In this document: positions 15,246-45,795 of the stretch, piece after piece | Layout of the letters: each line of letters begins with the position of its first letter | Position numbering within the stretch: position 1 is the first letter of the stretch | Source: Minisyncoccia bacterium | GTDB lineage: Bacteria > Patescibacteriota > Minisyncoccia > Phycocordibacterales > UBA9973 | Length of the DNA: 64,000 nt | Assembly (NCBI GenBank): GCA_049303835.1 | Contig: JBAQNN010000002.1 | Span: forward strand, 161,978 to 225,977 | Reading direction: 5' to 3' | Notes under the pieces: generated by a model | The model's input: only the letters and a program-made list of their open reading frames with translations | Told to the model about the DNA's origin: nothing | Database searches by the model: none | Program-made: the position numbers and the translations under genes

Positions 15246-15282
15246 AGGACGAACATCATTTTGTGATGTTCGTCCTTTTTCT
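15246..15282 (+). terminator. Rho-independent terminator after hppA
   Basis: AGGACGAACATCA-tttt-GTGATGTTCGTCCT followed by a T-run. Confidence 0.65.
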
Positions 15283-15296
15283 GTTATACTTTATAT

Positions 15297-15632
15297 ATGG
15301 TTTATAAAATGCAATTAGCAACTGAATATTTTAATAAAATTAGAAACGGTATTAAAACTATCGAATGTCGTCTTTTTGATGAAAAACGTAAATTATTAAA
15401 AATTGGTGATGTTATTGAGTTTGTAAATGCAGGGAATGAAGAGGAAAAAATTAAAAGTGAAATAGTGGCATTGCATAAATTTTCTAATTTTTCAGAATTA
15501 TTAGATTGTTTTCCAATAACAATATTTGGAGGTGAAAATAAAGAACAATTTCTTTCTGTATTAAAAAAATTTTACTCTGATGAAGATGAAAAAAAATATG
15601 GAGTAGTTGGAATTGAAATAAAACTTATTTAA
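15297..15632 (+). CDS. ASCH-domain protein, YqfB-like (N4-acetylcytidine amidohydrolase family)
   Basis: IRNGIKTIECR ... GDVIEFV ... LKKFYSDEDEKKYGVVGIEI parallels E. coli YqfB (ILAGRKTITIR ... GDVLRV ... LKKVIADIYP...FYVIEF). Confidence 0.6.
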   Translation: MVYKMQLATEYFNKIRNGIKTIECRLFDEKRKLLKIGDVIEFVNAGNEEEKIKSEIVALHKFSNFSELLDCFPITIFGGENKEQFLSVLKKFYSDEDEKKYGVVGIEIKLI

Positions 15633-15637
15633 AAAAA

Positions 15638-15682
15638 ATGGGCACCCGGGAGTTTTTCTCCTGGGCACCCGATGGGCTTTTG
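15638..15682. terminator. Bidirectional hairpin between convergent ASCH and GNAT-ASCH genes
   Basis: GGGCACCCGGGAG-ttttt-CTCCTGGGCACCC. Confidence 0.55.
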
Positions 15683-15695
15683 TTGATTGGTGGAA

Positions 15696-17036
15696 CTAGA
15701 CGGGAACGATCTCGAAGACGACGATTCCGAGTTTTTCTTTCTCCGGCGGATAAATCCGCTTGAGAAGCTGGAGCACTTCTTCCTTGGAAGAGAGGTCTGG
15801 GGCGATCTGTTCCCAGGATTCGTTGTCAAGAAGTGCTTCGATGGACAAGTGTCTTCGTACGGCGTTGATTCGTACGTCGATCGTGTTCTCGTGTGAGATG
15901 AGGCGGATCCGTTCACCAGCCTGGATGCGGTTGATGTTGTCGTATCCGACTCTCACTTCCAGGTTCTTTCGACCTGCACGGATGAGGTTGATGAAACGAG
16001 GTTTGACTCTCATGTTTCTCATTGTGCTAGCTCCTATCTCCAGACTCCACTGGTAGGTTGTGATGCCGGGTCGGTAAGCGGATGGCATGGCTGCATCGAG
16101 CTTCCAGCCAAAACGCTGCATTGACATTACTTCGTTAGCTGTCGGGTTGATATGGATGTAGAGCTTTCGACCATAACGCACGAGCTGGTGGGGAAGGTCG
16201 ACGAGCAATGCTTCGAAGGATGCTCTGTTGGTTGCTACAAGTGGCATCACCTTGATTGGTTCACCTTTTTTGGGAGTCATTCCTGCGACACCGAGTACTT
16301 GTCCGGAGCTGTCTACGGCGACGTAAACCAGCTTAAACTTGGAGTTGATGTCGCCACTGGCTCGTCTTCTATAACCACCGTAAAGAGCCCTGACCCAGTT
16401 CTCGTCGACACCACCAAACGAGTTGGGAAGTGTTTCGAGGAGAAGTTTGGTCACCTGCTTTTCGTACTTGTCTTCGAAGGGTAACACAGAAATCTGGATC
16501 TTGTCATACTCTGCTACTTCTTCAGCGAGATGGAAAGTCTTATAGATCATACTTTCGACCATGCCCGCTTTGTAGTGGCTATCTGAACTTCCAGCCCTGA
16601 TGTAACCCTTCTTGAGGAAAAACTGCATGGCTGCAATGTTCTGTTCGGCCACTGTGGCGTATATCTGTCGTGCCCCGTGAAGCTTCGCGTACTCTTCTGC
16701 GTGTTTGAGAAGAATGCTTCCTATACCACGCTGTCCTCGAACACTGGGTTCGAGAATGAGTGGGCTTAGTTTGTAAGTACCTTGTCTTTTACCAACAAGA
16801 TGAACCATTCCGACAGAAGCGCCATTGTACTCAGCGATGAACATTTTCTGTTCGAACGAAAAGAATCCGACCAGATCATGTCCTCCAGTGAGGTGAGCGT
16901 TGAGGATACGTTTAGCGTGAGCTCGATGATCTCCGCCATAGTAAGGCTCGAGAGCTTCTTGCATGAGGTTTGACACCCATGATGAGTCTTCTTCGACTGC
17001 TTCTCGAATTACTAAGACCGTTTCTTCATTTGTCAT
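15696..17036 (-). CDS. Tandem GNAT acetyltransferase fused to a C-terminal YqfB-like ASCH domain; GC-rich relative to flanks
   Basis: Two acetyl-CoA-binding GNAT cores (e.g. RGQRGIGSILLKHAEEYA). The C-terminal 100 aa (RFINLIRAGRKNLEVR ... LKRIYPPEKEKLGIVVFEI) is homologous to the adjacent stand-alone ASCH ORF. Visibly higher GC than neighbours. Confidence 0.65.
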   Translation of the reverse strand: MTNEETVLVIREAVEEDSSWVSNLMQEALEPYYGGDHRAHAKRILNAHLTGGHDLVGFFSFEQKMFIAEYNGASVGMVHLVGKRQGTYKLSPLILEPSVRGQRGIGSILLKHAEEYAKLHGARQIYATVAEQNIAAMQFFLKKGYIRAGSSDSHYKAGMVESMIYKTFHLAEEVAEYDKIQISVLPFEDKYEKQVTKLLLETLPNSFGGVDENWVRALYGGYRRRASGDINSKFKLVYVAVDSSGQVLGVAGMTPKKGEPIKVMPLVATNRASFEALLVDLPHQLVRYGRKLYIHINPTANEVMSMQRFGWKLDAAMPSAYRPGITTYQWSLEIGASTMRNMRVKPRFINLIRAGRKNLEVRVGYDNINRIQAGERIRLISHENTIDVRINAVRRHLSIEALLDNESWEQIAPDLSSKEEVLQLLKRIYPPEKEKLGIVVFEIVPV

Positions 17037-17050
17037 AGAACCTCCTTCTG

Positions 17051-17084
17051 AGGATCACAACACTTGATGTGTTTGAGTGATCCT
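17051..17084. promoter_or_regulatory. 8-bp inverted repeat AGGATCAC-N18-GTGATCCT immediately upstream of the GNAT-ASCH RBS; candidate operator
   Basis: Perfect IR at 17051-17058 and 17077-17084, just 5' of the AGGAGG RBS on the minus strand. Confidence 0.3.
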
Positions 17085-17170
17085 TAACTCATGTTATTAA
17101 TAACACAAAAAATAGGAATAGTCAATTTTATTTTAAAAAATTAATTGGTTCATGTATGGTTTTAATATAC

Positions 17171-17206
17171 AAAAAAGCCCCACCACATCTGTGGCGGGGC
17201 TTTTTA
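17171..17206 (-). terminator. Terminator downstream of nusA
   Basis: GCCCCACCACA-tc-TGTGGCGGGGC plus a T-run. Confidence 0.55.
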
Positions 17207-17215
17207 AATTATTTT

Positions 17216-18391
17216 TTATTCTTCCTTACTATCTTCTTCTAATATTTCTACTTTCTCACCGTCTGTCTTTGCGACTTCTTTATTGTCACCTTTTATATCT
17301 ATCCTCCAACCTGTGAGCTTTGCTGCGAGGCGTACGTTTTGTCCTCCTTTACCGATAGCGAGTGAAAGCTGATCGTCTGCTACTTCCACTGTGGCCTTGT
17401 GCTCCTTTTCATCTATTTCAATAGAAAGGACTTTCGCCGGAGAGAGGGAATTGGAAACGAATTGAGTAGGGTTCTCGGACCAAGGGATGATGTCAATTTT
17501 TTCTCCAGATAATTCTCCAGTAATGGTGTTTACCCTGGTTCCTTTCTGCCCGACGCATGAACCCACTGCGTCAATATGTTCGTCGTTTGAATATACCGAA
17601 ATCTTGGAGCGAGCTCCTGCTTCACGAGCAACGGACTTGATCTCAACTATACCACTCTCTATCTCTGGGGCTTCCATCGCGAAAAGCCTCTCTATAAATT
17701 TCGGATGAGTGCGGGACAGGCGCAAGTTTATGCCTCTTGGGGTATCTTCTACATTGTATAGATAAGCGCGAATACGTTGGCCTCTCTCCCAATACTCTCC
17801 CGGAATTTGTTCTTCAGTCGGAAGGACGCCCGTGGCCCTGTTGAAATCAACATAGATATTGCCTCTCTCTACTTTCTGCACTACTCCGGAGATGACTTCT
17901 CCTTCTTTTGTTCCGTATTCGTCTATGATGGAAGTACGTTCTGCTTCACGAATTTTCTGGATGATGACTTGCTTGGCTGTCTGAGCGGCGATGCGTCCGT
18001 AATCATCCTTAGCCTCCAACGGAAAAACTACTTCATCATTTAATTCCACCCCTTTTTTTATTTTCTTCGCGTCTTCCAAGAGGATATGGTGCTCTTCATT
18101 GAAATGTACCCGTTCATCTCCTTCTTCTTTTATAGAATACTCTCCCTCGTGTTTTTTATCGCTGTCTAAGATGGCGATGCTTTCGTCCACGACTATTTTG
18201 ACTTGGAAAAAATCTGTCTTGCCGGTTTCCATATCAAATTTAGCGCGGATTATTTGTCCTTTTTTGCCGTAATCTTTTTTGTAAGCGGCCGCCATCGCTT
18301 GTTCTATGGCTTCCAATATTTTTTCTTTTGGAATTTTTCTTTCTTCCTCCAATTGTTCAAGCGCTGATTTGAATGTTTTTATATCTAACAT
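17216..18391 (-). CDS. nusA: Transcription termination/antitermination factor NusA
   Basis: NTD, S1 and two KH domains; 391 aa. Confidence 0.9.
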   Translation of the reverse strand: MLDIKTFKSALEQLEEERKIPKEKILEAIEQAMAAAYKKDYGKKGQIIRAKFDMETGKTDFFQVKIVVDESIAILDSDKKHEGEYSIKEEGDERVHFNEEHHILLEDAKKIKKGVELNDEVVFPLEAKDDYGRIAAQTAKQVIIQKIREAERTSIIDEYGTKEGEVISGVVQKVERGNIYVDFNRATGVLPTEEQIPGEYWERGQRIRAYLYNVEDTPRGINLRLSRTHPKFIERLFAMEAPEIESGIVEIKSVAREAGARSKISVYSNDEHIDAVGSCVGQKGTRVNTITGELSGEKIDIIPWSENPTQFVSNSLSPAKVLSIEIDEKEHKATVEVADDQLSLAIGKGGQNVRLAAKLTGWRIDIKGDNKEVAKTDGEKVEILEEDSKEE

Positions 18392-18430
18392 GTTGATTTT
18401 TAAGGAATGTAATGACTATAAAAATCATCA

Positions 18431-18487
18431 CCCTGTGAAATTCCTGCTTTGCAGGAAGCTCAAGCTGTGCTTGAGTATTTCACGGGG
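18431..18487 (-). other. Compound stem-loop: outer stem enclosing two hairpins, between the GIY-YIG gene and nusA
   Basis: CCCTGTGAAAT ... ATTTCACGGGG outer stem around TTCCTGC-tt-GCAGGAA and CTCAAGC-tgt-GCTTGAG. Confidence 0.4.
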
Positions 18488-18531
18488 TTGTGAATTTATA
18501 TTCACTTCCTCGTTAATTTATAAACAAATTA

Positions 18532-18810
18532 CTACCCCATTAAATATGATTTGAGCCGACTTCGCAAAAATTGTTTTCCGTATGCTGTCTTTAGATATTT
18601 TTCACGATGCATTGCATCATGTTTATCTAAACAAGCTTCGGAATAAATCAGTTCAAACGGCCTTCTGTCTTTTGTTGAACTGACTTGACCTTTGCGATGT
18701 TGCTCAAATCGGGATTTCAAATCATTTGTATATCCCACATACAGCTTTTTGTCTTTTTGGGACTTAAGAACGTATATGTAATAAAACTTTTTTACTTGAT
18801 TTGAAATCAT
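18532..18810 (-). CDS. GIY-YIG nuclease family protein
   Basis: YIYVLKS ... LYVGYTNDLKSRFEQH motif. Confidence 0.8.
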   Translation of the reverse strand: MISNQVKKFYYIYVLKSQKDKKLYVGYTNDLKSRFEQHRKGQVSSTKDRRPFELIYSEACLDKHDAMHREKYLKTAYGKQFLRSRLKSYLMG

Positions 18811-19725: not shown

Positions 19726-19862
19726 AATGATGAATTGTATATTACTTTTCTATTTTTGTAAAACAAAAAGTCTTTAAATCTATACCCTAAAACAACTTTC
19801 TTTTTGACTTTTTGGAAAAAATATTTCGTAAAGATGGACTGTGGATAACTGCTCTTGCAACT

Positions 19863-19897
19863 TGCTTTTTATCACTTTTTGTGGTATATACAGAGAA
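19863..19897 (+). promoter_or_regulatory. Candidate promoter for the GC-rich secreted-protein gene
   Basis: TTGCTT-17-TATATA with a TG extended -10 (tgGTATATA); GGAGG RBS 8 nt before the ATG at 19982. Confidence 0.4.
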
Positions 19898-19981
19898 AGA
19901 GTCAAAGTTCTTCGTCAGAAGAAAAAGACTAACAGCACAACAGGTCTCGTCCTAAAAAGGCGGGGCCGGAAGGAGGACGTC

Positions 19982-20758
19982 ATGCGTCTCATCGTTGTCA
20001 CCCTCGTTTCCTTCGTACTGGCGTTCTCCGCGAACGCTCAGCCTCTCAACATCGACCCCGAGGTGCGTAGCACGTCGGCGATGTCGGAAAGCTCGGCGCG
20101 TCTGCCTCGGATGGCTCGCGCTCCGCAGATGGAGCCCACACTGTGGACTCCGTGGGAAGCCGCGGTCGTCGTCCGGTCCTCTGGACAGGTGGGGACCAAC
20201 GACATCTTCTCGGTGTCGTGTCACATTTTTACCCCCCTGCCGAAATGGGCAATGACCGAATCTTGGATCCGAAAGCCTGATGGGGAGGTTTATCTTCCCT
20301 CAGTACTTAGGGAGGACATCACTGTTCCCGATCTTTCGGGATGGCAGTGGTGGATCTGGAACGAACCTCTCCCGGCAGACTGGCCGGCTGGAGTGACCAC
20401 CTTTGAACTCATCGTTACCATCGGCTGGGGGACTCCGGACGAGAGGAAATACACCGCTGTCGCTAGGGTGGCGACGGGGGGGGTATATCCCGCCGGGGAT
20501 CCTCCTCGATTCGGACCTCTGGAAGATGCCATCGTGGACTCATCTGGAGGAGTGATTCTCCGTGGGGTCTTTAACACCCCTCCGGTCGTGGTTGCTCCCG
20601 ACTGGGTCGTCAGGAAGATTGAACTGGAGGGCGACTACTACGTCCCTCCTGGTTCCATCGGTGCTGGAAACAGACCTCTCGGTGTGTGCTCCGGCGTCAA
20701 TGGTGACCCCAACCACCTGGAGTGCTCCACTCAGATCGTATCAATCCCTGTTTTCTAG
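19982..20758 (+). CDS. Secreted protein of unknown function encoded in a GC-rich island (about 60% GC by eye)
   Basis: Signal peptide MRLIVVTLVSFVLAFSANA-QP; strong GGAGG RBS; abrupt GC shift near 19925; Trp/Pro-rich mature protein. Confidence 0.6.
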   Translation: MRLIVVTLVSFVLAFSANAQPLNIDPEVRSTSAMSESSARLPRMARAPQMEPTLWTPWEAAVVVRSSGQVGTNDIFSVSCHIFTPLPKWAMTESWIRKPDGEVYLPSVLREDITVPDLSGWQWWIWNEPLPADWPAGVTTFELIVTIGWGTPDERKYTAVARVATGGVYPAGDPPRFGPLEDAIVDSSGGVILRGVFNTPPVVVAPDWVVRKIELEGDYYVPPGSIGAGNRPLGVCSGVNGDPNHLECSTQIVSIPVF

Positions 20759-20909: not shown

Positions 20910-23705
20910 ATGAATTATAAATTTTCAAATTTTTTTGTTTTATTTGTTTTAATAATTGGATCTTTTTTATTTGTTAATAATATAGTTTCTGCCCAAACAT
21001 CATGCCAAGGTGTCGCACTTCGTGAAGCTGTGTGGGTTCCTGATCATTCTTATGCATACCAAGCATGCGGAACTGCCATCACTAATTGTTCTAGTGGTCA
21101 ACAATGTGTCCCCAACACGGGTAGAGATGAGAATTCTATAAATACAAAAATAGGACCATCGGGGGAAGAACCGAGTCTGGGGAGTAGCGTCTATTGTGGA
21201 AAGAGAGCTACTTGCGTCACTCCTAGCTTTGATGTAACCACAAGTAAAACAGGTGATCTTGCAAGCACGGCTACAGTCACTCCCAACCTTAAGACAGTTT
21301 CATCTGGTAGCACAGCTTCATTCACTTTGAGTCCTGGTTTCAGTACACAGGTTGTAGGATGTTCATTAGGTTCATTTTCTGGTAATGTTTATACCACTGG
21401 TCCAATTAGTGGAAATTGTAATGTACAGTTCAATTTCCCCGCTCCTCCTCTCTCCTGTGCCGTAGATACTGCCGCTACCCCTGCTCCTCATCTTATAAAT
21501 AATACGGTAAAATTTTTAGCGACCGGTGGAACAGGTACATGGTCTTGGACCAATACTGATGGTGGTACTCCTTCAACTGGAACAGGAAATCAAATCTGGC
21601 CTGCTTGGAGCACTACCGGGACAAAGACAGTGACTGTCACGAGTGGAACACAGACAAAAACTTGTACCGTTAACATAACAAATCCACCCACCCCTCCTCT
21701 CTCTTGTGCTCACGACACAAATCAAGCAGAGCCGATTTATACAGGTGCCGGAGCTAAATTCCGAGCGACCGGTGGAACGGGAACATATTCATGGACATAT
21801 AGCGCTACTCCATCAGCTGGGAATCCAACTTCCGGAATTGAAGTCTGGCCTGCTTGGACCAACTCGGGGACAAAGACTGCGACAGTGACAAGCGGATCAC
21901 TGACAGCGAATTGCACTGTGTATATAACACCACTTCCAGCCACTCCCATTAATGGTGTTTGTGCGACTACACACTATGCCTGTGGTAGTCCTGCGGCCAG
22001 TACAAATAATAGTAGTTTGAATCCCAGTCTTTGGACTTGGACTTGCCCCGGTTCAAATGGCGGAACAAATGCATCTTGTTCAGAATTAAAGCCAGCGATG
22101 AATGGCACCCTCAATGCCACCAACTGTATTATTAACGGAAACGCAAGTAGTTGTACTTCTACAGTGACTTGGAGCACAGTAAGTCCTGTCGGCACATCCA
22201 ATGTCACTTCCAATACTCCGAGCGCTAACACTGTAATCGGCACCGGAATTTCCGGTTCTACTACGGCGATTATCTCTTACAACTCTAGAAATTTTTATCT
22301 AAACAATAATGGAGTTCAACTCGCGTCTGATATAGCCACCGCTACTTGTGCCACTGGCACCAGTTGGAATGGAAGTATCTGCGCGGTCGTAGCAGTTGTA
22401 GGCCCAGACCTGACCGCTTCCGCTCCAGTTCCTGGATTGGCGACAGTGAATGTGCCTCGTACTTTCTCTGCAAATATTTCAAACATCGGAAGTTCATCTA
22501 CGGCAGTTTCCTTCCAAAATCAATTTCAGGTAGCAAGCCTGGCAAACGGTGGAGGTACTATTACCAATCTTACTCCTACCGTCCCCACGACTGCTCTCGG
22601 AGGTGGGGTAGCAAGGGATATCACTTCTCCTCCTCACACTTTTACGGCTATTGGAACCCAATCTATCAGAGTTTGTGCTGATATACCTCCGCAACCAAAT
22701 GGTGTGGTGGTTGAAGCAAACGAAAGCAACAACTGTAGTCCTTGGACAAATGTAACCGTCGATACCACTGTTTGTACAATAACCGGGTATCACGATGCTG
22801 CCAGTGGAACTGTCCCCGCCTCTCAATGTCAAGCCAATGGCTGGGCCGCTTGTTCTAATGATAAGGCGCTTGACTTAAATATCCGAGTTTTGAGTGATGG
22901 GGTACAGGTAACGACAGGAACAGCCGGGACCTACCGAGGTGATCTTGAAGCTGCGGGTGTCTGTACTGGGGGCACTTGTTCATACTGGACAAATTTATCA
23001 GGTCTCATCACTCCAGGAGTAAACCACACGATAACCGCTCAGGCCCAAAATCCAGGAAATGGAGTATGGACTACTTTGACATCAAGTCCCAGAATTATAA
23101 ATTGTGGGGCGCCTACGACGGGCACTCTCACTGCTTCTGATTGTACTATTGCTCAAAACGCAAGTAGTTGTAGTTCTACTGTAGGTTGGAGTACTACAAA
23201 TCCTGTCGGTACATCAAATGTTACTTCCAATACTCCTACCCCTAATTTTCTAATTGCGAACGGCAATTCAGGAGCGCTTTCAGTTACTGTTCCATATAAT
23301 TCTAGAACTTTTTTCCTTAATAATAATTCTGTGACAATAGCCACAGACACAGCGAACGCCACTTGTGTCTCGGGTACGGTTTGGGATGGTAGTAAGTGTT
23401 ATGCAGCTCCTCCTTCAGTCTGTGGAAATGGTGTGAGAGAGGGAGCTGAATCATGTGACCTGGGTGGTGGCAATGGTGCTTGTCCTTCTTTGTGTAGTAC
23501 CTCCTGCACCATCAATTCGTGTGCGGTACCGACCAATGGTTCTTGTGGAACTCCGGCAGCACATTACAACTGTGCATCTCCTCAACCAAGCATCAATCAA
23601 GTGAATGGTATAAGTTCTTGGACTTGGACATGTCCTGGAGCAGATGGAGGAGCGAGTGTCTCATGTGAGGAGCTCAAAAAGAAACCGATAATCATAGAAG
23701 ACTAA
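20910..23705 (+). CDS. Large secreted Cys/Thr/Ser-rich repeat protein; probable adhesin
   Basis: Signal peptide. Two tandem repeats of about 85 aa (PPLSCAxDT...ATGGTGTxSWT...TKTxTVTSG...CTVxIT). Two repeats of about 100 aa (C...NASSC.STV.WST..PVGTSNVTSNTP...YNSR.F.LNNN). Three CxSPxxSxNxxxxxxxWTWTCPGxxGGxxxSCxELK modules. One CGNGVREGAESCDLGGGNGAC motif resembling the Myxococcus cysteine-rich repeat. Confidence 0.75.
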   Translation: MNYKFSNFFVLFVLIIGSFLFVNNIVSAQTSCQGVALREAVWVPDHSYAYQACGTAITNCSSGQQCVPNTGRDENSINTKIGPSGEEPSLGSSVYCGKRATCVTPSFDVTTSKTGDLASTATVTPNLKTVSSGSTASFTLSPGFSTQVVGCSLGSFSGNVYTTGPISGNCNVQFNFPAPPLSCAVDTAATPAPHLINNTVKFLATGGTGTWSWTNTDGGTPSTGTGNQIWPAWSTTGTKTVTVTSGTQTKTCTVNITNPPTPPLSCAHDTNQAEPIYTGAGAKFRATGGTGTYSWTYSATPSAGNPTSGIEVWPAWTNSGTKTATVTSGSLTANCTVYITPLPATPINGVCATTHYACGSPAASTNNSSLNPSLWTWTCPGSNGGTNASCSELKPAMNGTLNATNCIINGNASSCTSTVTWSTVSPVGTSNVTSNTPSANTVIGTGISGSTTAIISYNSRNFYLNNNGVQLASDIATATCATGTSWNGSICAVVAVVGPDLTASAPVPGLATVNVPRTFSANISNIGSSSTAVSFQNQFQVASLANGGGTITNLTPTVPTTALGGGVARDITSPPHTFTAIGTQSIRVCADIPPQPNGVVVEANESNNCSPWTNVTVDTTVCTITGYHDAASGTVPASQCQANGWAACSNDKALDLNIRVLSDGVQVTTGTAGTYRGDLEAAGVCTGGTCSYWTNLSGLITPGVNHTITAQAQNPGNGVWTTLTSSPRIINCGAPTTGTLTASDCTIAQNASSCSSTVGWSTTNPVGTSNVTSNTPTPNFLIANGNSGALSVTVPYNSRTFFLNNNSVTIATDTANATCVSGTVWDGSKCYAAPPSVCGNGVREGAESCDLGGGNGACPSLCSTSCTINSCAVPTNGSCGTPAAHYNCASPQPSINQVNGISSWTWTCPGADGGASVSCEELKKKPIIIED
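21451..21950 (+). repeat. Intragenic tandem duplication of about 250 bp encoding the Ig-like Thr-rich module
   Basis: Protein-level repeat PPLSCAVDTAATP... / PPLSCAHDTNQAEP... is mirrored at the DNA level. Confidence 0.5.
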
Positions 23706-42306: not shown

Positions 42307-45300
42307 ATGGCTGAAGAAAAAAATGTAAATAAAAAATCCGAATCGGCTCTTCGCGAAGAGCGAATACTAGAATTTTGGCGAGAAAATAAAACTTTTGAAA
42401 AATCATTGAAGCAATCAGAGGGTAAAAGGGAGTTTATCTTTTACGAAGGTCCTCCGACCGCCAATGGAAAACCTGGGATTCACCACTTGGAAGCAAGAGC
42501 GTTTAAAGATGTGATTCCGCGATACAAAACAATGCGGGGATATCATGTGCGCAGAAAAGGAGGATGGGATACACATGGACTACCGGTAGAACTTCAGGTG
42601 GAAAAAAAACTAGGGTTAGATTCCAAAAAAGCGATTGAAGAATATGGTATTGCTAAATTTAATCAGGAATGCAAAGAAAGCGTCTGGGAATATTTGGATG
42701 TTTGGAATAAATTTACAAAACGTATCGGGTATTGGGTAGATCAAGAAGATGCGTATGTCACTTACCACAATCAATTCATTGAATCTGTTTGGAATATAAC
42801 TAAAAAAATAAACGAACAAGATTTGCTTTATAAAGATTATAAAGTTGTGCCTTGGTGCCCGAGGTGTGGCACTGCCTTATCTTCTCATGAGCTTGCGCAG
42901 GGATATGAAGACATAAAAGATTTATCTGTTTATGTAAAATTTAAAGTTGTTGGGCAAGAAAATACCTTCGTTCTTGCTTGGACGACGACGCCATGGACCC
43001 TGCCGGGGAATGTAGCCTTGGCCGTGGGGAAGGATATTGAATATGTAAAAATTAAACAAGAAAATGAATTTTTCATTTTAGCCAAAGCCCGACTTTCAAT
43101 TATTGAGGGCAGTTATGAAGTTGTTGAAGAAATTGAGGGCAAAAAATTGGAGGGGCTGAAGTACGAGCCACTTTATCCATATCTTACAAATACTATTTCC
43201 GAAAGCGAAAAACCAAAATTAGAGAAATCTTTTCAGGTTTATGGTGCGGATTTTGTAACCACTGAAGATGGAACAGGAGTGGTACATACTGCAGTCATGT
43301 ATGGTCAGGACGACTTTGAGCTTGGTACAAAAATTGGTTTACCGAAACACCATTTGGTTGGTTTGGACGGCAAATTTTTACCAGGTACGGGAATTTTTGA
43401 AGGAAGATTTGTCAGAGATGAAGATGTCGCAGTCGATGTAATAAAAGATTTGGCTGGACGAGGGCTTCTTTTAAAGAAAGAAAAATATGAGCACTCATAT
43501 CCTCATTGTTGGCGTTGTCACACTGCGCTCATTTATTACGCACGAGATTCTTGGTACGTGAAAGTTTCTGATTTGAAAATTAAAGAAAAAATGATAGCTG
43601 AAAACAAAGAAATAAACTGGGAACCGTCACATATCCGTGATGGGCGCTTTGGAGAATGGTTGAGAGAGATAAAAGATTGGGCCGTGTCTCGTGAACGATA
43701 CTGGGGAACTCCTTTTCCGGTTTGGATTTGTGAAGCTTGTAAAAAGGTTGAAGTTGTTGGAAGTGTAGAAGACTTAAAAGACAAAACCAAAAAATCCGGG
43801 AATAAATATTTTGTGATGCGCCACGGAGAAGCGGACAATAATATTGATAACGGTCTCCGTAAATATAAAGATTTAGAGGAAAATGCCAAATTGACAGACA
43901 AGGGGAAAGAGCAGGTTCTGGAAAGATCCAAGGACTTCAAAGAAAAAATAGATGTAGTCATCTCTTCTCCTTATAGCAGAGCAAAAGAAACAGCAGAGAT
44001 AATTTGTAAGCAGATTGGTTTTCCACCAGAGAAAATTGTTGTTGATGAACGTATCCATGAATGGGAGATTAGTTCTTTTTTTGAGGGGAAAGAAAGGGAT
44101 TTATTTAGTAAATATTATGATTCTGGTTATCTCGATAACCCCTTTGAAGTTTTGCCAAACGGAGAAAGTTTTGTGCAGGTTGTAAAACGAGTAGGAGATT
44201 TCATTTATGATATAGAAAAAAAATATTCCGGTAAAAATATTCTTATCGTTGGTCATCAAGGGGCGACTTGTGCATTAAGTTTTTTGACGAAAGGTTTTAT
44301 GTTTAGTGATTTATCAAGTATAAATAATCCTCTGATCTCTCTTCAAAATGCCGAAATAAAAGAATTTGATTTTACCCCTCTCCCACACAACAAAGATTAT
44401 GAATTGGATTTGCATCGGCCATATATAGATGAGGTGTCTCTCGTCTGTGAATGTGGTGGAAAATTAACACGTACCAAAGAAGTGATGGACGTGTGGTTTG
44501 ATTCAGGGTGTATGCCTTTTGCGCAAGATCACTATCCGTTTGAGAATAAAAAATGGGTAGATGGTACTGGTTACCCTGCTGATTTTATTTCTGAGGCGGT
44601 AGATCAGACTCGTGGGTGGTTCTATACTTTACATGCTATTGGGATTTTAATGGGTCGTGGCAAAGCATATAAAAATGTTATCTGCTTGGGTCACTTACTT
44701 GATGCTAAAGGTAAAAAAATGTCCAAATCCCTTGGAAATATTGTTGACCCATGGGATGCTATGGAAAAATACGGAGTGGACACCTTGCGTCTTTGGATGT
44801 ATTCGGTAAATCAGCCAGGTGAATCTAAAAATTTTGACGAGAAGACGGTTGCCTTGCTTCATCAGCAAGTTTTCGGGTTACTTTACAACGTTCTTGCTTT
44901 CCATGAGCTCTACAGAAATAAGGAGATAGAAATTTTAGAAAATAAAAAATCAGATAATATTTTAGATGCTTGGATTTTAGAAAGGATGAATGTCTTGGTG
45001 GAATTAATTACCAAAAATCTTGATGGGTATAAATTACTTGAGCCAGTTAGAGCTATAAGAGATTTTATAGGAGACCTTTCCACCTGGTACTTGCGTCGTT
45101 CTCGCGACCGAATCAAAGATGGGGGCCAAGAAGCAAAGCAAACTCTATACTATATATTAAAAACCTTGGCGAAAGTCATCGCTCCGTTTGCTCCATTTAC
45201 CGCTGAGGATATCTGGTTGAAATTACGAAATGAAAAAGATGAAGAAAGTGTACACCTCACAGAGTGGCCGAAAGAAGGATTCAAACTTTTCTCTTTTGGG

Positions 45301-45795
45301 CTAAACAATAAGTCAAAAGTTCTAGAAAATATGGAGACGACTAGAAAGATAGTGACCTTGGGCCTTGAAGCCAGACAAAAAGCCGGATTAAAAGTTCGTC
45401 AGCCACTTAATCAATTACGAATTAAGAATTACGAATTAGGAATTGAATATACAGAATTAATAAAAGACGAGTTGAACGTAAAAGAAGTAATAGAAAATAA
45501 AAATATTGAAAATGAAGTGGAATTAGATATACAGATAACTCCAGAGTTAAAGGAAGAAGGGGATTACAGGGAGCTTGCTCGTGCTTTGCAAGATATGAGG
45601 AAAAAGACGGGCCTTACTCCGAGTGATGTTGTAATGCTTACTATCGAAACGGATGATGTAGGCAAAAAATTAATTCAAAAATTTGAGCCGGATATGAAAA
45701 AAACCGTATTGGCGTCCGAAATAAAATTTCAAACAAATGATGGTGAAGAAATAAAAATAGATAATTTAATTTTCAAAGTTAAAATTGAGAAATAA
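42307..45795 (+). CDS. ileS: Isoleucyl-tRNA synthetase carrying an inserted histidine-phosphatase (PGAM-like) domain
   Basis: PPTANGKPGIHH, WCPRCGTAL editing/Zn region, HRPYID, DVWFDSG, KMSKSLGN. Residues about 490-692 (FVMRHGEADNN ... VISSPYSRAKETA ... ILIVGHQGATCAL) match histidine phosphatase superfamily branch 1. Confidence 0.85.
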   Translation: MAEEKNVNKKSESALREERILEFWRENKTFEKSLKQSEGKREFIFYEGPPTANGKPGIHHLEARAFKDVIPRYKTMRGYHVRRKGGWDTHGLPVELQVEKKLGLDSKKAIEEYGIAKFNQECKESVWEYLDVWNKFTKRIGYWVDQEDAYVTYHNQFIESVWNITKKINEQDLLYKDYKVVPWCPRCGTALSSHELAQGYEDIKDLSVYVKFKVVGQENTFVLAWTTTPWTLPGNVALAVGKDIEYVKIKQENEFFILAKARLSIIEGSYEVVEEIEGKKLEGLKYEPLYPYLTNTISESEKPKLEKSFQVYGADFVTTEDGTGVVHTAVMYGQDDFELGTKIGLPKHHLVGLDGKFLPGTGIFEGRFVRDEDVAVDVIKDLAGRGLLLKKEKYEHSYPHCWRCHTALIYYARDSWYVKVSDLKIKEKMIAENKEINWEPSHIRDGRFGEWLREIKDWAVSRERYWGTPFPVWICEACKKVEVVGSVEDLKDKTKKSGNKYFVMRHGEADNNIDNGLRKYKDLEENAKLTDKGKEQVLERSKDFKEKIDVVISSPYSRAKETAEIICKQIGFPPEKIVVDERIHEWEISSFFEGKERDLFSKYYDSGYLDNPFEVLPNGESFVQVVKRVGDFIYDIEKKYSGKNILIVGHQGATCALSFLTKGFMFSDLSSINNPLISLQNAEIKEFDFTPLPHNKDYELDLHRPYIDEVSLVCECGGKLTRTKEVMDVWFDSGCMPFAQDHYPFENKKWVDGTGYPADFISEAVDQTRGWFYTLHAIGILMGRGKAYKNVICLGHLLDAKGKKMSKSLGNIVDPWDAMEKYGVDTLRLWMYSVNQPGESKNFDEKTVALLHQQVFGLLYNVLAFHELYRNKEIEILENKKSDNILDAWILERMNVLVELITKNLDGYKLLEPVRAIRDFIGDLSTWYLRRSRDRIKDGGQEAKQTLYYILKTLAKVIAPFAPFTAEDIWLKLRNEKDEESVHLTEWPKEGFKLFSFGLNNKSKVLENMETTRKIVTLGLEARQKAGLKVRQPLNQLRIKNYELGIEYTELIKDELNVKEVIENKNIENEVELDIQITPELKEEGDYRELARALQDMRKKTGLTPSDVVMLTIETDDVGKKLIQKFEPDMKKTVLASEIKFQTNDGEEIKIDNLIFKVKIEK

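Follow-up and report, generated by a model that had tools for sequence, protein, structure and literature searches.

Introduction

In the described (PIN)-GNAT-EVE + ASCH operons a gene for a GNAT acetyltransferase with a C-terminal domain of the PUA superfamily is accompanied by one for a separate ASCH protein (Iyer et al. 2013; Bell et al. 2020, PMC7641849). ASCH proteins themselves include amidohydrolases of N4-acetylcytidine (ac4C), such as E. coli YqfB, T. thermophilus TthASCH, human EOLA1 and TRIP4-ASCH. Their octapeptide has been defined as GxKxx[E/T]xR with a catalytic Lys and Glu/Thr; in the ac4C deacetylases of the GKER type the Lys and Glu are essential, and 19 of 19 ASCH proteins tested removed ac4C from tRNA, a role as tRNA ac4C erasers that was reported only in 2026 (bioRxiv 10.64898/2026.02.27.708502). 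Here we describe a locus that recalls both systems in the genome of a Minisyncoccia bacterium (Patescibacteriota; GenBank assembly GCA_049303835.1, contig JBAQNN010000002.1, positions 161,978 to 225,977 of the forward strand). This whole stretch of 64,000 nucleotides is called the window. A gene on its minus strand, the big gene, encodes a GNAT / GNAT-like / ASCH protein and faces a plus-strand gene for a stand-alone ASCH protein, the small gene or partner; the leader of the big gene and the two genes together are called the module. The region 15297-17125 that holds the module is probably a native, strongly conserved two-gene unit of Patescibacteria and not an acquired island, and of the structural and evolutionary statement about the module we are quite confident.

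A nucleic-acid base or tRNA is the predicted target of the module and of the (PIN)-GNAT-EVE + ASCH operons alike. They differ in that the fused domain is ASCH here instead of EVE, the GNAT part is a tandem of an active and a degenerate domain, PIN, AAA_17, restriction-modification and prophage neighbours are absent here, and the genes are usually convergent. The module is also slow-evolving and spread across the candidate phyla radiation (CPR) of ultra-small bacteria, whereas the operons are patchy and linked to defence. With the ac4C amidohydrolases it shares the Pfam family PF04266 and the GxKxxExR (GKER) motif, which is present in both of its ASCH domains. In contrast to them, one ASCH copy is fused to an acetyltransferase, a combination undescribed in the literature searched. 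Among the Pyrococcus ASCH proteins PF0455, PH0355 and PF0469, both ASCH domains are nearest to PF0455 and PH0355 (E 1e-10 to 1e-15), whose PDB entries are "hypothetical proteins" from structural genomics.

Two further groups of acetyltransferases are comparable. TmcA, NAT10 and Kre33 likewise combine a GNAT domain with an RNA-binding module, and their product, ac4C, is the one proposed here. The big protein, however, has no helicase/ATPase (DUF1726) and no detectable sequence relationship to them beyond the GNAT fold; because the helicase is missing (Pfam finds GNAT and ASCH only) it is not a homolog of TmcA or NAT10. Tandem-GNAT enzymes, such as the clavulanate-pathway protein 2wpw, GlmA (5kf1), a histidine acetyltransferase (9en3), VipF and Eis, also contain two GNAT folds of which one has the acetyl-CoA loop, and Foldseek relates the big protein to such enzymes with E-values of 1e-13 to 1e-10 at 10-16% identity. 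These enzymes act on small molecules, sugars or proteins and, unlike the big protein, carry no ASCH domain.

A conserved pair of a tandem-GNAT-ASCH protein and a stand-alone ASCH protein

An earlier sequence-only reading of the window had called the big gene a GNAT-ASCH gene with an AGGAGG ribosome-binding site, and both points are borne out: Pfam detects GNAT (7e-15) and ASCH (3e-6) in the protein, and the AGGAGG is in place before the start codon (Table 1). An identical 446-aa protein is recorded in an NCBI Minisyncoccia metagenome-assembled genome. The structure of the protein was modelled with AlphaFold2 (AF2; pLDDT 88) and compared by Foldseek. Domain 1 is a GNAT acetyltransferase (55.8 bits against a cutoff of 20.7 over residues 59-145) that matches single solved GNATs with TM values of 0.7-0.86. 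It keeps the acetyl-CoA pyrophosphate loop ..RGIGS.., in which G104 and G106 are invariant, and in the AF2 model this loop lies between strand 87-95 and helix 105-119, the beta4/alpha3 position. Domain 2 is without the G-x-G acetyl-CoA loop; T254-P-K-K-G258 is invariant in it, and its best Foldseek matches are the tandem-GNAT proteins 2wpw, 5kf1 and 9en3. Domain 3 scores 28.2 bits for ASCH (cutoff 21.2) and has the octapeptide GRKNLEVR at residue 355 with K357, E360 and R362 invariant in the family; the nearest solved chains are PF0455 (1s04) and PH0355 (2z0t) at an E-value of about 1e-10. From its N-terminus the protein consists of a GNAT of the acetyl-CoA type, a second GNAT that is degenerate, and an ASCH domain whose GxKxxExR catalytic motif is intact.

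We found 592 homologs of the big protein. Full-length matches are 58-77% identical across Patescibacteria, and the closest homolog in a search of 5.8 billion proteins is just 77% identical. Databases label these proteins "GNAT family N-acetyltransferase" or "ASC-1-like/RimI-like", and JGI annotates "ribosomal protein S18 acetylase RimI-like enzyme". In an alignment of 30 proteins from many CPR lineages, including Paceibacterota, Moranbacteria, Wildermuthbacteria, Andersenbacteria and Jacksonbacteria, the mean column identity is 72%, and by this measure the big protein evolves very slowly.

The small protein, a paralogous ASCH, belongs to PF04266 with 44.1 bits (cutoff 21.2). Its octapeptide GIKTIECR starts at residue 18, 43 of 49 partner proteins contain the motif, and the nearest solved chains are again PH0355 and PF0455 (E 1e-15). 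For comparison we used 80 related loci that encode relatives of the big protein, drawn from one-genome-per-species GTDB contigs and labelled L001 onward. Adjacency of the small gene was counted in two ways: it adjoins the big gene in 48 of the 80 loci by tblastn and in 59 loci by clustering. Two arrangements occur. In relatives of at least 56% identity the small gene is convergent and downstream with a gap of 27-83 bp, as it is in the window; in more distant relatives it lies upstream in tandem orientation, 94-152 bp away. Between the big and small proteins the distance matrices correlate (Mantel r 0.51, a value reached by 0 of 2000 permutations), and L001 and L002 are the nearest relatives of the window in both. 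As judged from these distances, the two proteins co-evolve. Across the 81 loci taken in by the clustering of conserved neighbours no other conserved neighbour was found, the next-commonest cluster being present in 6 loci. Beyond the pair, synteny with the window extends to nusA in 2 loci and to ClpP in 1, and on the 483-kb contig P0007 the pair is present in yet another gene context. About 20 non-CPR homologs, at about 50% identity, are without the partner gene.

The layout of a GNAT with a C-terminal PUA-like domain next to a separate ASCH is shared with the (PIN)-GNAT-EVE + ASCH operons (PMC7641849). We therefore considered a toxin-antitoxin or defence module of this kind, in which the GNAT fusion would be toxic by acetylating aminoacyl-tRNA or a nucleic-acid base and the small ASCH would reverse or neutralise the effect. 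An eraser-type partner would fit such a reversal, and the module is self-contained, occurs in variable contexts and is patchy outside CPR. The slow evolution of the big protein speaks against this explanation, as do the facts that the stretches examined contain no second copy of the big gene, that PADLOC gave no significant match to a defence system and that the PIN, AAA_17, restriction-modification and prophage neighbours are missing. The genes are moreover mostly convergent with separate promoters and do not form an autoregulated bicistron, non-CPR homologs persist without the partner, and the codon bias described below suggests constitutive high expression. We regard a toxin-antitoxin role as quite unlikely.

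Both hairpins that flank the big gene have the features of Rho-independent terminators, namely a GC-rich hairpin and a U tract at a gene 3' end. The sequence-only reading had taken them as the limits of a GC-rich island. They are real terminators (z = -4.1 and -7.0), but the one at 17172-17205 is no boundary of the big gene: it terminates nusA (17216-18391) and insulates the big gene from read-through. On the other side, the minus-strand hairpin at 15640-15670 with its U6 tract terminates the big gene, and the complementary plus-strand fold does the same for the small ASCH gene (-22.1 kcal/mol, z = -4.1 on the minus strand; -24.1 kcal/mol, z = -2.1 on the plus strand). The small gene is preceded by a promoter-like site. 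With a -10 that ends 6 nt ahead of the start codon ATG and no recognizable Shine-Dalgarno sequence, the small ASCH mRNA may be leaderless. A perfect 13-bp hairpin with a T-run at 15246-15276 terminates the H+-PPase gene and overlaps the promoter-like -35 of the small gene.

Table 1. Positions of the genes, protein domains and predicted signals of the module and its borders in the window.
Feature	Position	Strand	Basis and details
Big gene, GNAT / GNAT-like / ASCH protein, 446 aa	15696..17036	-	Open reading frame and Pfam; stop codon 15696-15698
Domain 1, GNAT acetyltransferase, aa 1-170	16527..17036	-	Pfam Acetyltransf_1 (PF00583), Foldseek
Domain 2, degenerate GNAT-like fold, aa 180-335	16032..16499	-	Foldseek, weak Acetyltransf_18 match
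Domain 3, ASCH, aa 340-446	15699..16019	-	Pfam PF04266, octapeptide G355-R-K357-N-L-E360-V-R362
Shine-Dalgarno sequence AGGAGG	17041..17046	-	Read in sequence; 4 nt before ATG at 17034-17036
5'-leader hairpin (the inverted repeat)	17051..17084	-	Fold energy -16.5 kcal/mol; homologous to conserved-leader helices 2 and 3
Predicted sigma-70-type promoter, TTGACT (17125-17120), 17-nt spacer, TGtTATTAA (17105-17097)	17097..17125	-	Read in sequence
nusA intrinsic terminator	17172..17205	-	15-bp stem and T-run; -26.4 kcal/mol, z = -7.0
Partner, stand-alone ASCH protein, 111 aa	15297..15632	+	Pfam ASCH 3.5e-11; octapeptide G18-I-K-T-I-E-C-R25
Promoter-like site of small gene, TTGTGA-18-TATACT	15261..15296	+	Sequence scan; inferred only
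Bidirectional terminator of the convergent pair	15633..15682		Minus-strand hairpin 15640-15670, then U6 tract 15633-15639

A covarying hairpin in the 5' leader of the big gene

Just upstream of the ribosome-binding site of the big gene the sequence-only reading had noticed an 8-bp perfect inverted repeat and taken it for the binding site of a regulator. The repeat is exact, consisting of AGGATCAC (17051-17058), an 18-nt spacer and GTGATCCT (17077-17084), and it does look regulatory, but its pairing covaries in 30 leaders and it does not behave as a protein-binding site. Inverted repeats of 8 bp are frequent in the window, with 139 found against 48 +/- 8 in shuffled sequence. This one continues inward with AACAC/GTGTT to give a 13-bp hairpin made of the outer stem (17051-17058/17077-17084), an inner stem (17059-17063/17069-17073), a loop (17064-17068) and a bulge (17074-17076). 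The promoter predicted upstream of it was not called by the scanning tool because the last base of its -10 is A; a TTGACx-17-TATAAx element directly before the hairpin is also found in L001, L002, L082 and L084. Given the predicted position of the promoter, the inverted repeat would lie inside the transcript at about +6 to +40, with 4 nt between its end and the Shine-Dalgarno sequence.

We assessed the conservation of the structure in a structure-blind MAFFT alignment of 30 orthologous leaders, using as controls alignments in which the 3' partners were slid and, in addition, 500 shuffles. The leaders follow the pattern ..AACCUUyGAGyUAC-GCA-[variable stem-loop]-GUGRyUC-GGCAAAGGAGG..AUG. In the three-helix structure 86.4% of cells are paired, against 38-50% in the slid controls, and 104 cells show a double change, against 24-36. 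The covariation score is 0.587 compared with at most 0.18 in the controls, and 0 of 500 shuffles reach it. Compensatory changes are seen in 14 of 14 pairs of the hairpin helices 2 and 3, while the loop varies in length from about 4 to 24 nt. The third helix, in which CCUU pairs with AAGG of the Shine-Dalgarno sequence, is 86% paired and conserved in sequence. In L084, the closest relative (77% protein identity), the outer stem is kept via changes from G·U to Watson-Crick pairs and the inner stem is different. A covariance model of the leader finds 32 sites in 1.22 Mb, all directly upstream of the big gene; 30 of the 32 are training sequences and the independent ones are L007 and L051, of which the L051 leader duplicates the training sequence L008. 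The match in the window (17033-17114, minus strand) scores 47.7 bits with an E-value of 4e-8.

Since the arms vary in sequence while pairing is kept and the loop changes in length, these observations point to an RNA hairpin and not to a protein-binding palindrome. The alternative is a DNA operator for a dimeric transcription factor. The palindrome does lie just downstream of the predicted -10, a classical position for a repressor, and 8-bp arms with an 18-bp spacer could suit a dimer. In an operator, however, one would look to the sequence of the arms, which is unconserved here, and the spacer itself forms a stem; repeats of this size are also common in the window, as stated above. Because it is the pairing and not the sequence that is conserved, and because no gene for a DNA-binding regulator lies beside the module in any locus, the operator reading is disfavoured, and we consider it very unlikely. 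The inverted repeat is, by this comparative evidence, best described as the predicted outer stem of a conserved mRNA leader hairpin. The hairpin would act in the mRNA beside the Shine-Dalgarno sequence and control translation or stability.

Leaders that sequester the Shine-Dalgarno sequence, such as autoregulatory leaders of ribosomal-protein genes, translational riboswitches and RNA thermometers, likewise have a hairpin immediately 5' of this sequence, and most relatives of the window leader have the CCUU/AAGG pairing. In contrast to these known leaders, Rfam 15 has nothing over 17037-17125 even at E <= 10, and its only matches at the gathering threshold in 8 related loci are tRNAs. Two points weigh against a regulatory role in the window itself: its leader keeps the two hairpin helices and misses the anti-Shine-Dalgarno pairing of most relatives, and the transcription start of the big gene is predicted from sequence. 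Loci of the tandem type have a different, analogous covarying leader between the two genes.

Further elements were observed upstream in relatives. A canonical TTGACT-17-TGnTAATAT promoter lies farther upstream in most relatives of the convergent type, and by eye it is not present in the subclade of the window. Most of these relatives also have a 5'-terminal hairpin, for example CCUUGAGA...UCUCAAGG, seen by eye about 60-125 nt upstream of the big gene in L004, L008, L010, L015, L022, L070 and others; its arms vary in a complementary way, and by eye the subclade of the window is also without it. In most convergent-type relatives a conserved linker, GUUCUUUAAC, connects this hairpin with the one proximal to the Shine-Dalgarno sequence, and the 3' arm of the 5'-terminal hairpin could instead pair with CCUUUGAG at the base of the main hairpin. 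RNAalifold gave no consensus for the upstream 5' hairpin region because MAFFT could not align it.

Base composition and codon use of the pair

The big gene has a GC content of 49.4%, with a highest 300-bp window of 52.7%, where the 64-kb window has a mean of 40.1% and the immediate flanks of the gene have 23-37%. The sequence-only reading had put the gene in the mid-50s and the flanks at 35-40%. Both estimates are too high, but the gene is an outlier as that reading had seen: its GC at third codon positions (GC3) of 0.539 is the second highest of 54 open reading frames (ORFs) and above 98% of 48 other ORFs, whose median is 0.37. The low GC of the flanks results from intergenic DNA and a gene of 23.5% GC. 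Two other neighbouring genes, those for H+-PPase (46.5%) and nusA (43.2%), are likewise above the window mean.

The excess of the big gene is confined to C at third positions (C3). Its C3 is 0.349 compared with 0.184 in a background of 50 other window genes, while G at third positions (G3) is 0.190 compared with 0.188. AAC, GAC, TTC, TAC, ATC and CTC are all strongly preferred, and the NNC index, defined as NNC/(NNC+NNU) codons, reaches 0.72, second of 54. The small gene is biased in the opposite direction and has the lowest GC (23.5%) and GC3 (0.089) in the window, with C3 of 0.027 and G3 of 0.062. This contrast recurs in the relatives. GC3 is higher in the big than in the small gene in 47 of 47 loci. 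In 45 loci in which GC3 was ranked locally, the big gene reaches the top decile 25 times and the small gene falls into the bottom decile 22 times. Third-position C of the big gene is raised in 36 of 45 loci, on average by 0.069 and in low-GC hosts by 0.089, and among 35 low-NNC hosts its NNC index is the highest of all neighbours in 15. The AT bias of the small gene relative to its host recurs across most related genomes.

The opposite GC3 bias in all 47 loci makes the contrast a trait of the gene pair and not a sign of recent transfer. The description of the big gene as a single-gene cassette also fails at this point, as its conserved partner lies outside the supposed island and carries the opposite bias. 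A co-inherited pair cannot take opposite compositions from one donor, so that the GC step is no donor signature. In the GC-richer relative L001 the big gene has both C3 (0.33) and G3 (0.32) high, and decay from such a donor cannot yield C3 of 0.35 with G3 of 0.19. We infer that the GC step arises from gene-specific selection for C-ending codons, possibly linked to expression, and not from a foreign mutational background.

Among genes of the window the NNC index declines from the big gene (0.72) through RecA (0.55), FtsK (0.53), NusA (0.51) and trigger factor (0.45) to aminoacyl-tRNA synthetases (0.20-0.25). Several points stand against this interpretation. By every measure the big gene is a compositional outlier, including its dinucleotide-signature distance (rank 3 of 36). 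In related loci the index is inconsistent, with 0.60 and 0.26 for bL21, 0.55 for L15e and 0.49-0.67 for aminoacyl-tRNA synthetases, so the link to expression is uncalibrated, and the window holds no ribosomal-protein genes for comparison.

The abrupt change in GC at both ends of the gene, on a metagenome-assembled contig, could also be produced by a chimeric misassembly of DNA from two organisms. The changes coincide exactly with gene boundaries and terminators, however, and dozens of independent assemblies contain the same convergent pair with the same GC contrast. The leader, promoter and terminators also form one unbroken stretch and look functional. A chimera is therefore extremely improbable.

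A better candidate for foreign DNA than the big gene is the ORF at 19841-20758 (plus strand, 305 aa), another of the GC-rich islands of the sequence-only reading. It has a GC content of 56.9% and a GC3 of 0.64, with C3 (0.34) and G3 (0.30) both raised, and no match in Pfam, NCBIfam or PADLOC.

Origin and mobility of the module

To the sequence-only reading the big gene had looked like horizontally acquired DNA, and a homolog search for the donor lineage was suggested there. Such a gene would be a GC-rich single-gene cassette whose GC still reflects a GC-richer donor. Besides GC3 and the dinucleotide signature, this explanation can draw on the closest relatives (73-75% identity), which are found in genomes of 49-55% GC, and on the slope of only 0.5 in the regression of gene GC on flank GC. 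It is contradicted by a third-position excess restricted to C with G3 as in the host, whereas both are high in L001, by the recurrence of the same bias in most low-GC CPR hosts and by a co-inherited partner that is the AT-richest gene of the window. The close homologs are all from Patescibacteria, as are all those with a source name among the top 120, the best of them is the 77% match already mentioned, and promoter and Shine-Dalgarno sequence are like those of the relatives. The nusA gene product of L001 is 46% identical to that of the window, compared with 75% for the big protein, whose family is slow-evolving.

Nor did we find the usual companions of mobile DNA here. No integrase or transposase is present among the genes scanned within about 5 kb on either side of the module, where the genes matched to families are those for RNase Y, ClpP, trigger factor, H+-PPase, NusA and a small GIY-YIG protein and the rest are without significant match. 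The whole window is devoid of tRNA genes, and no border repeats are present here. In IMG/VR viral contigs, INPHARED phages and PLSDB plasmids there are no members of the family, only isolated ASCH proteins and one tandem-GNAT-MazG homolog. Of the features by which an island is recognized, the big gene thus shows atypical composition; it shows neither a donor-like shift of both G3 and C3, nor mobility genes, a tRNA target or border repeats, nor absence from its near relatives or a nearest homolog outside its lineage. Acquisition from a GC-richer donor is in our view unlikely, and the claim of horizontal origin is not upheld.

A native origin of the module has to be weighed against signs of movement, which at the same time favour the donor explanation. 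The gene context of the module differs in nearly every genome, and outside CPR the distribution of homologs is patchy and includes Asgard archaea, Acidobacteria and Planctomycetes, among others. A perfect direct repeat of 98 bp in L010 (9764-9861 and 11893-11990), which contains a whole tRNA-Leu(GAG) gene and 12 nt, surrounds the 2.1-kb module, which suggests that the module was duplicated or inserted as a unit; from this repeat, lateral movement in the history of the module is likely. Adjoining tRNA genes are also frequent: in 48 related loci (L001-L079), tRNA or tmRNA genes are found within 600 bp of the module about 4.6-fold more often than expected (22/60 against 4.8; p 4.5e-10), with varying anticodons. 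The module may thus move occasionally, which does not account for the GC contrast in the window. The probable reading remains that of a native module of Patescibacteria.

Several homologs lie in bins that are labelled as other lineages, namely Proteobacteria, Thiosymbion, Planctomycetia, Promethearchaeota and Blastocatellia (L039, L047, L050, L041, L042 and others). In several non-CPR homologs the GC of the gene is far below that of the flanks, for example 0.42 compared with 0.67 in L039. Low-GC homologs in non-CPR bins indicate transfer out of CPR or mis-binned contigs.

Possible function of the module

The tandem-GNAT core belongs to a small family of 432 representatives among 1.84 billion proteins. 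It is fused to an ASCH of the PF0455 type in 13 representatives, to an ASCH of the ZmASCH type at either terminus in another 13 (PDB 5y6b, E 9e-5), to MazG-like domains in 4 and also to a Ham1-like NTP pyrophosphatase. The fusions to ASCH, MazG-like and Ham1-like domains are independent, and all of these domains handle nucleosides or nucleotides. The recurrent fusions argue for a nucleoside or nucleotide substrate rather than a protein, and the chemistry of ASCH for N4-acyl-cytosine specifically. Of 16 loci with an adjacent tRNA gene, 13 have it, as judged from coordinates, just upstream of the small ASCH gene and in the same orientation, a position that keeps tRNA in play as substrate.

On a plasmid of Rhodococcus sp. 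2G (p1, NZ_CP018064.1, 46056-47402; L081, 3941-5287) a 448-aa homolog of the core with 30% identity has a MazG-like domain in place of ASCH. The cluster around its gene, which resembles a pathway for a cytosine-nucleoside natural product, also encodes a nucleoside 2-deoxyribosyltransferase, a DegT aminotransferase, a GT4 glycosyltransferase, a methyltransferase and a dTDP-glucose dehydratase.

We tentatively propose that the module is a leader-controlled writer of N4-acyl groups on cytidine with reader or eraser domains, acting on tRNA or on free nucleotides. The GNAT would attach an N4-acyl group to the cytosine of tRNA or of free cytidine nucleotides, the ASCH domains would read or erase it, and the leader hairpin would set translation or stability of the big-gene mRNA. 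A more specific version is doubtful: the big protein would be a compact cytidine N4-acetyltransferase, free of helicase and ATP, that acts on tRNA or on the pool of free cytidine nucleotides, with a built-in eraser-type ASCH and a stand-alone eraser, forming a self-contained core ac4C system of Patescibacteria whose level would be set by a hitherto undescribed structured leader RNA that senses the proteins or a metabolite.

A different possibility is that the big protein is an N-acetyltransferase for proteins of the translation apparatus, similar to RimI, RimJ or RimL, whose ASCH docks on rRNA or tRNA, the small ASCH being an unrelated RNA-binding factor. The best NCBIfam match is RimI (1e-8), JGI annotates homologs as RimI-like, conservation is at the level of a housekeeping gene, and ASCH and PUA domains bind RNA (PMC7641849). 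The NCBIfam search, however, yielded sub-threshold GNAT equivalogs only, RimI with 35 bits against a cutoff of 86. The catalytic ASCH octapeptide is invariant, which docking alone would not need, and the tandem-GNAT core is fused elsewhere to MazG-like and Ham1-like domains and located once in the nucleoside-sugar cluster described above. A RimI-like role thus seems unlikely.

The proposal of an N4-acyl-cytosine writer meets objections of its own. The fusion of a writer to an eraser-type domain is mechanistically odd, and the activity is predicted from sequence and fold. The best NCBIfam match, far below its cutoff as it is, is to a protein acetyltransferase. ASCH domains can also bind RNA or DNA or, in ZmASCH, act as a nuclease, and the substrates of GNATs include proteins and small molecules. 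The literature searched holds no description of a GNAT-ASCH module in CPR or of its leader, and a search on the amicetin protein AmiF as an analogous cytosine N4-acyltransferase returned nothing usable.

Other features of the window

The nusA gene is followed by a strong terminator and not by infB (17216-18810). Upstream of it lies a gene for a 92-aa GIY-YIG protein (18532-18810), and about 5 other loci have a similar small GIY-YIG gene at most 10 kb from the module. The ORF at 20910-23705 (plus strand, 931 aa) has an unusual GC at second codon positions of 0.61 and no match in Pfam or NCBIfam. At 42307-45795 (plus strand) a class-I aminoacyl-tRNA synthetase of 1162 aa is encoded in which a His_Phos_1 domain (residues 502-686) is inserted between the halves of the catalytic domain.

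Conclusions

In a low-GC genome, horizontal transfer is not the only possible cause of a sharp GC step at gene boundaries. In the present case the step comes from the C-ending codon choice of one gene, which recurs across a radiation of phylum level, with a partner that is biased oppositely. CPR organisms have minimal genomes and depend on nucleotide salvage. To our knowledge, almost no regulatory RNAs have been described in this group, and the covarying leader is a candidate for a new cis-regulatory RNA of CPR. The acetyltransferase-fused ASCH, at about 60% identity across CPR classes, is with its partner a testable candidate for a writer/eraser pair of ac4C or N4-acyl-cytosine.

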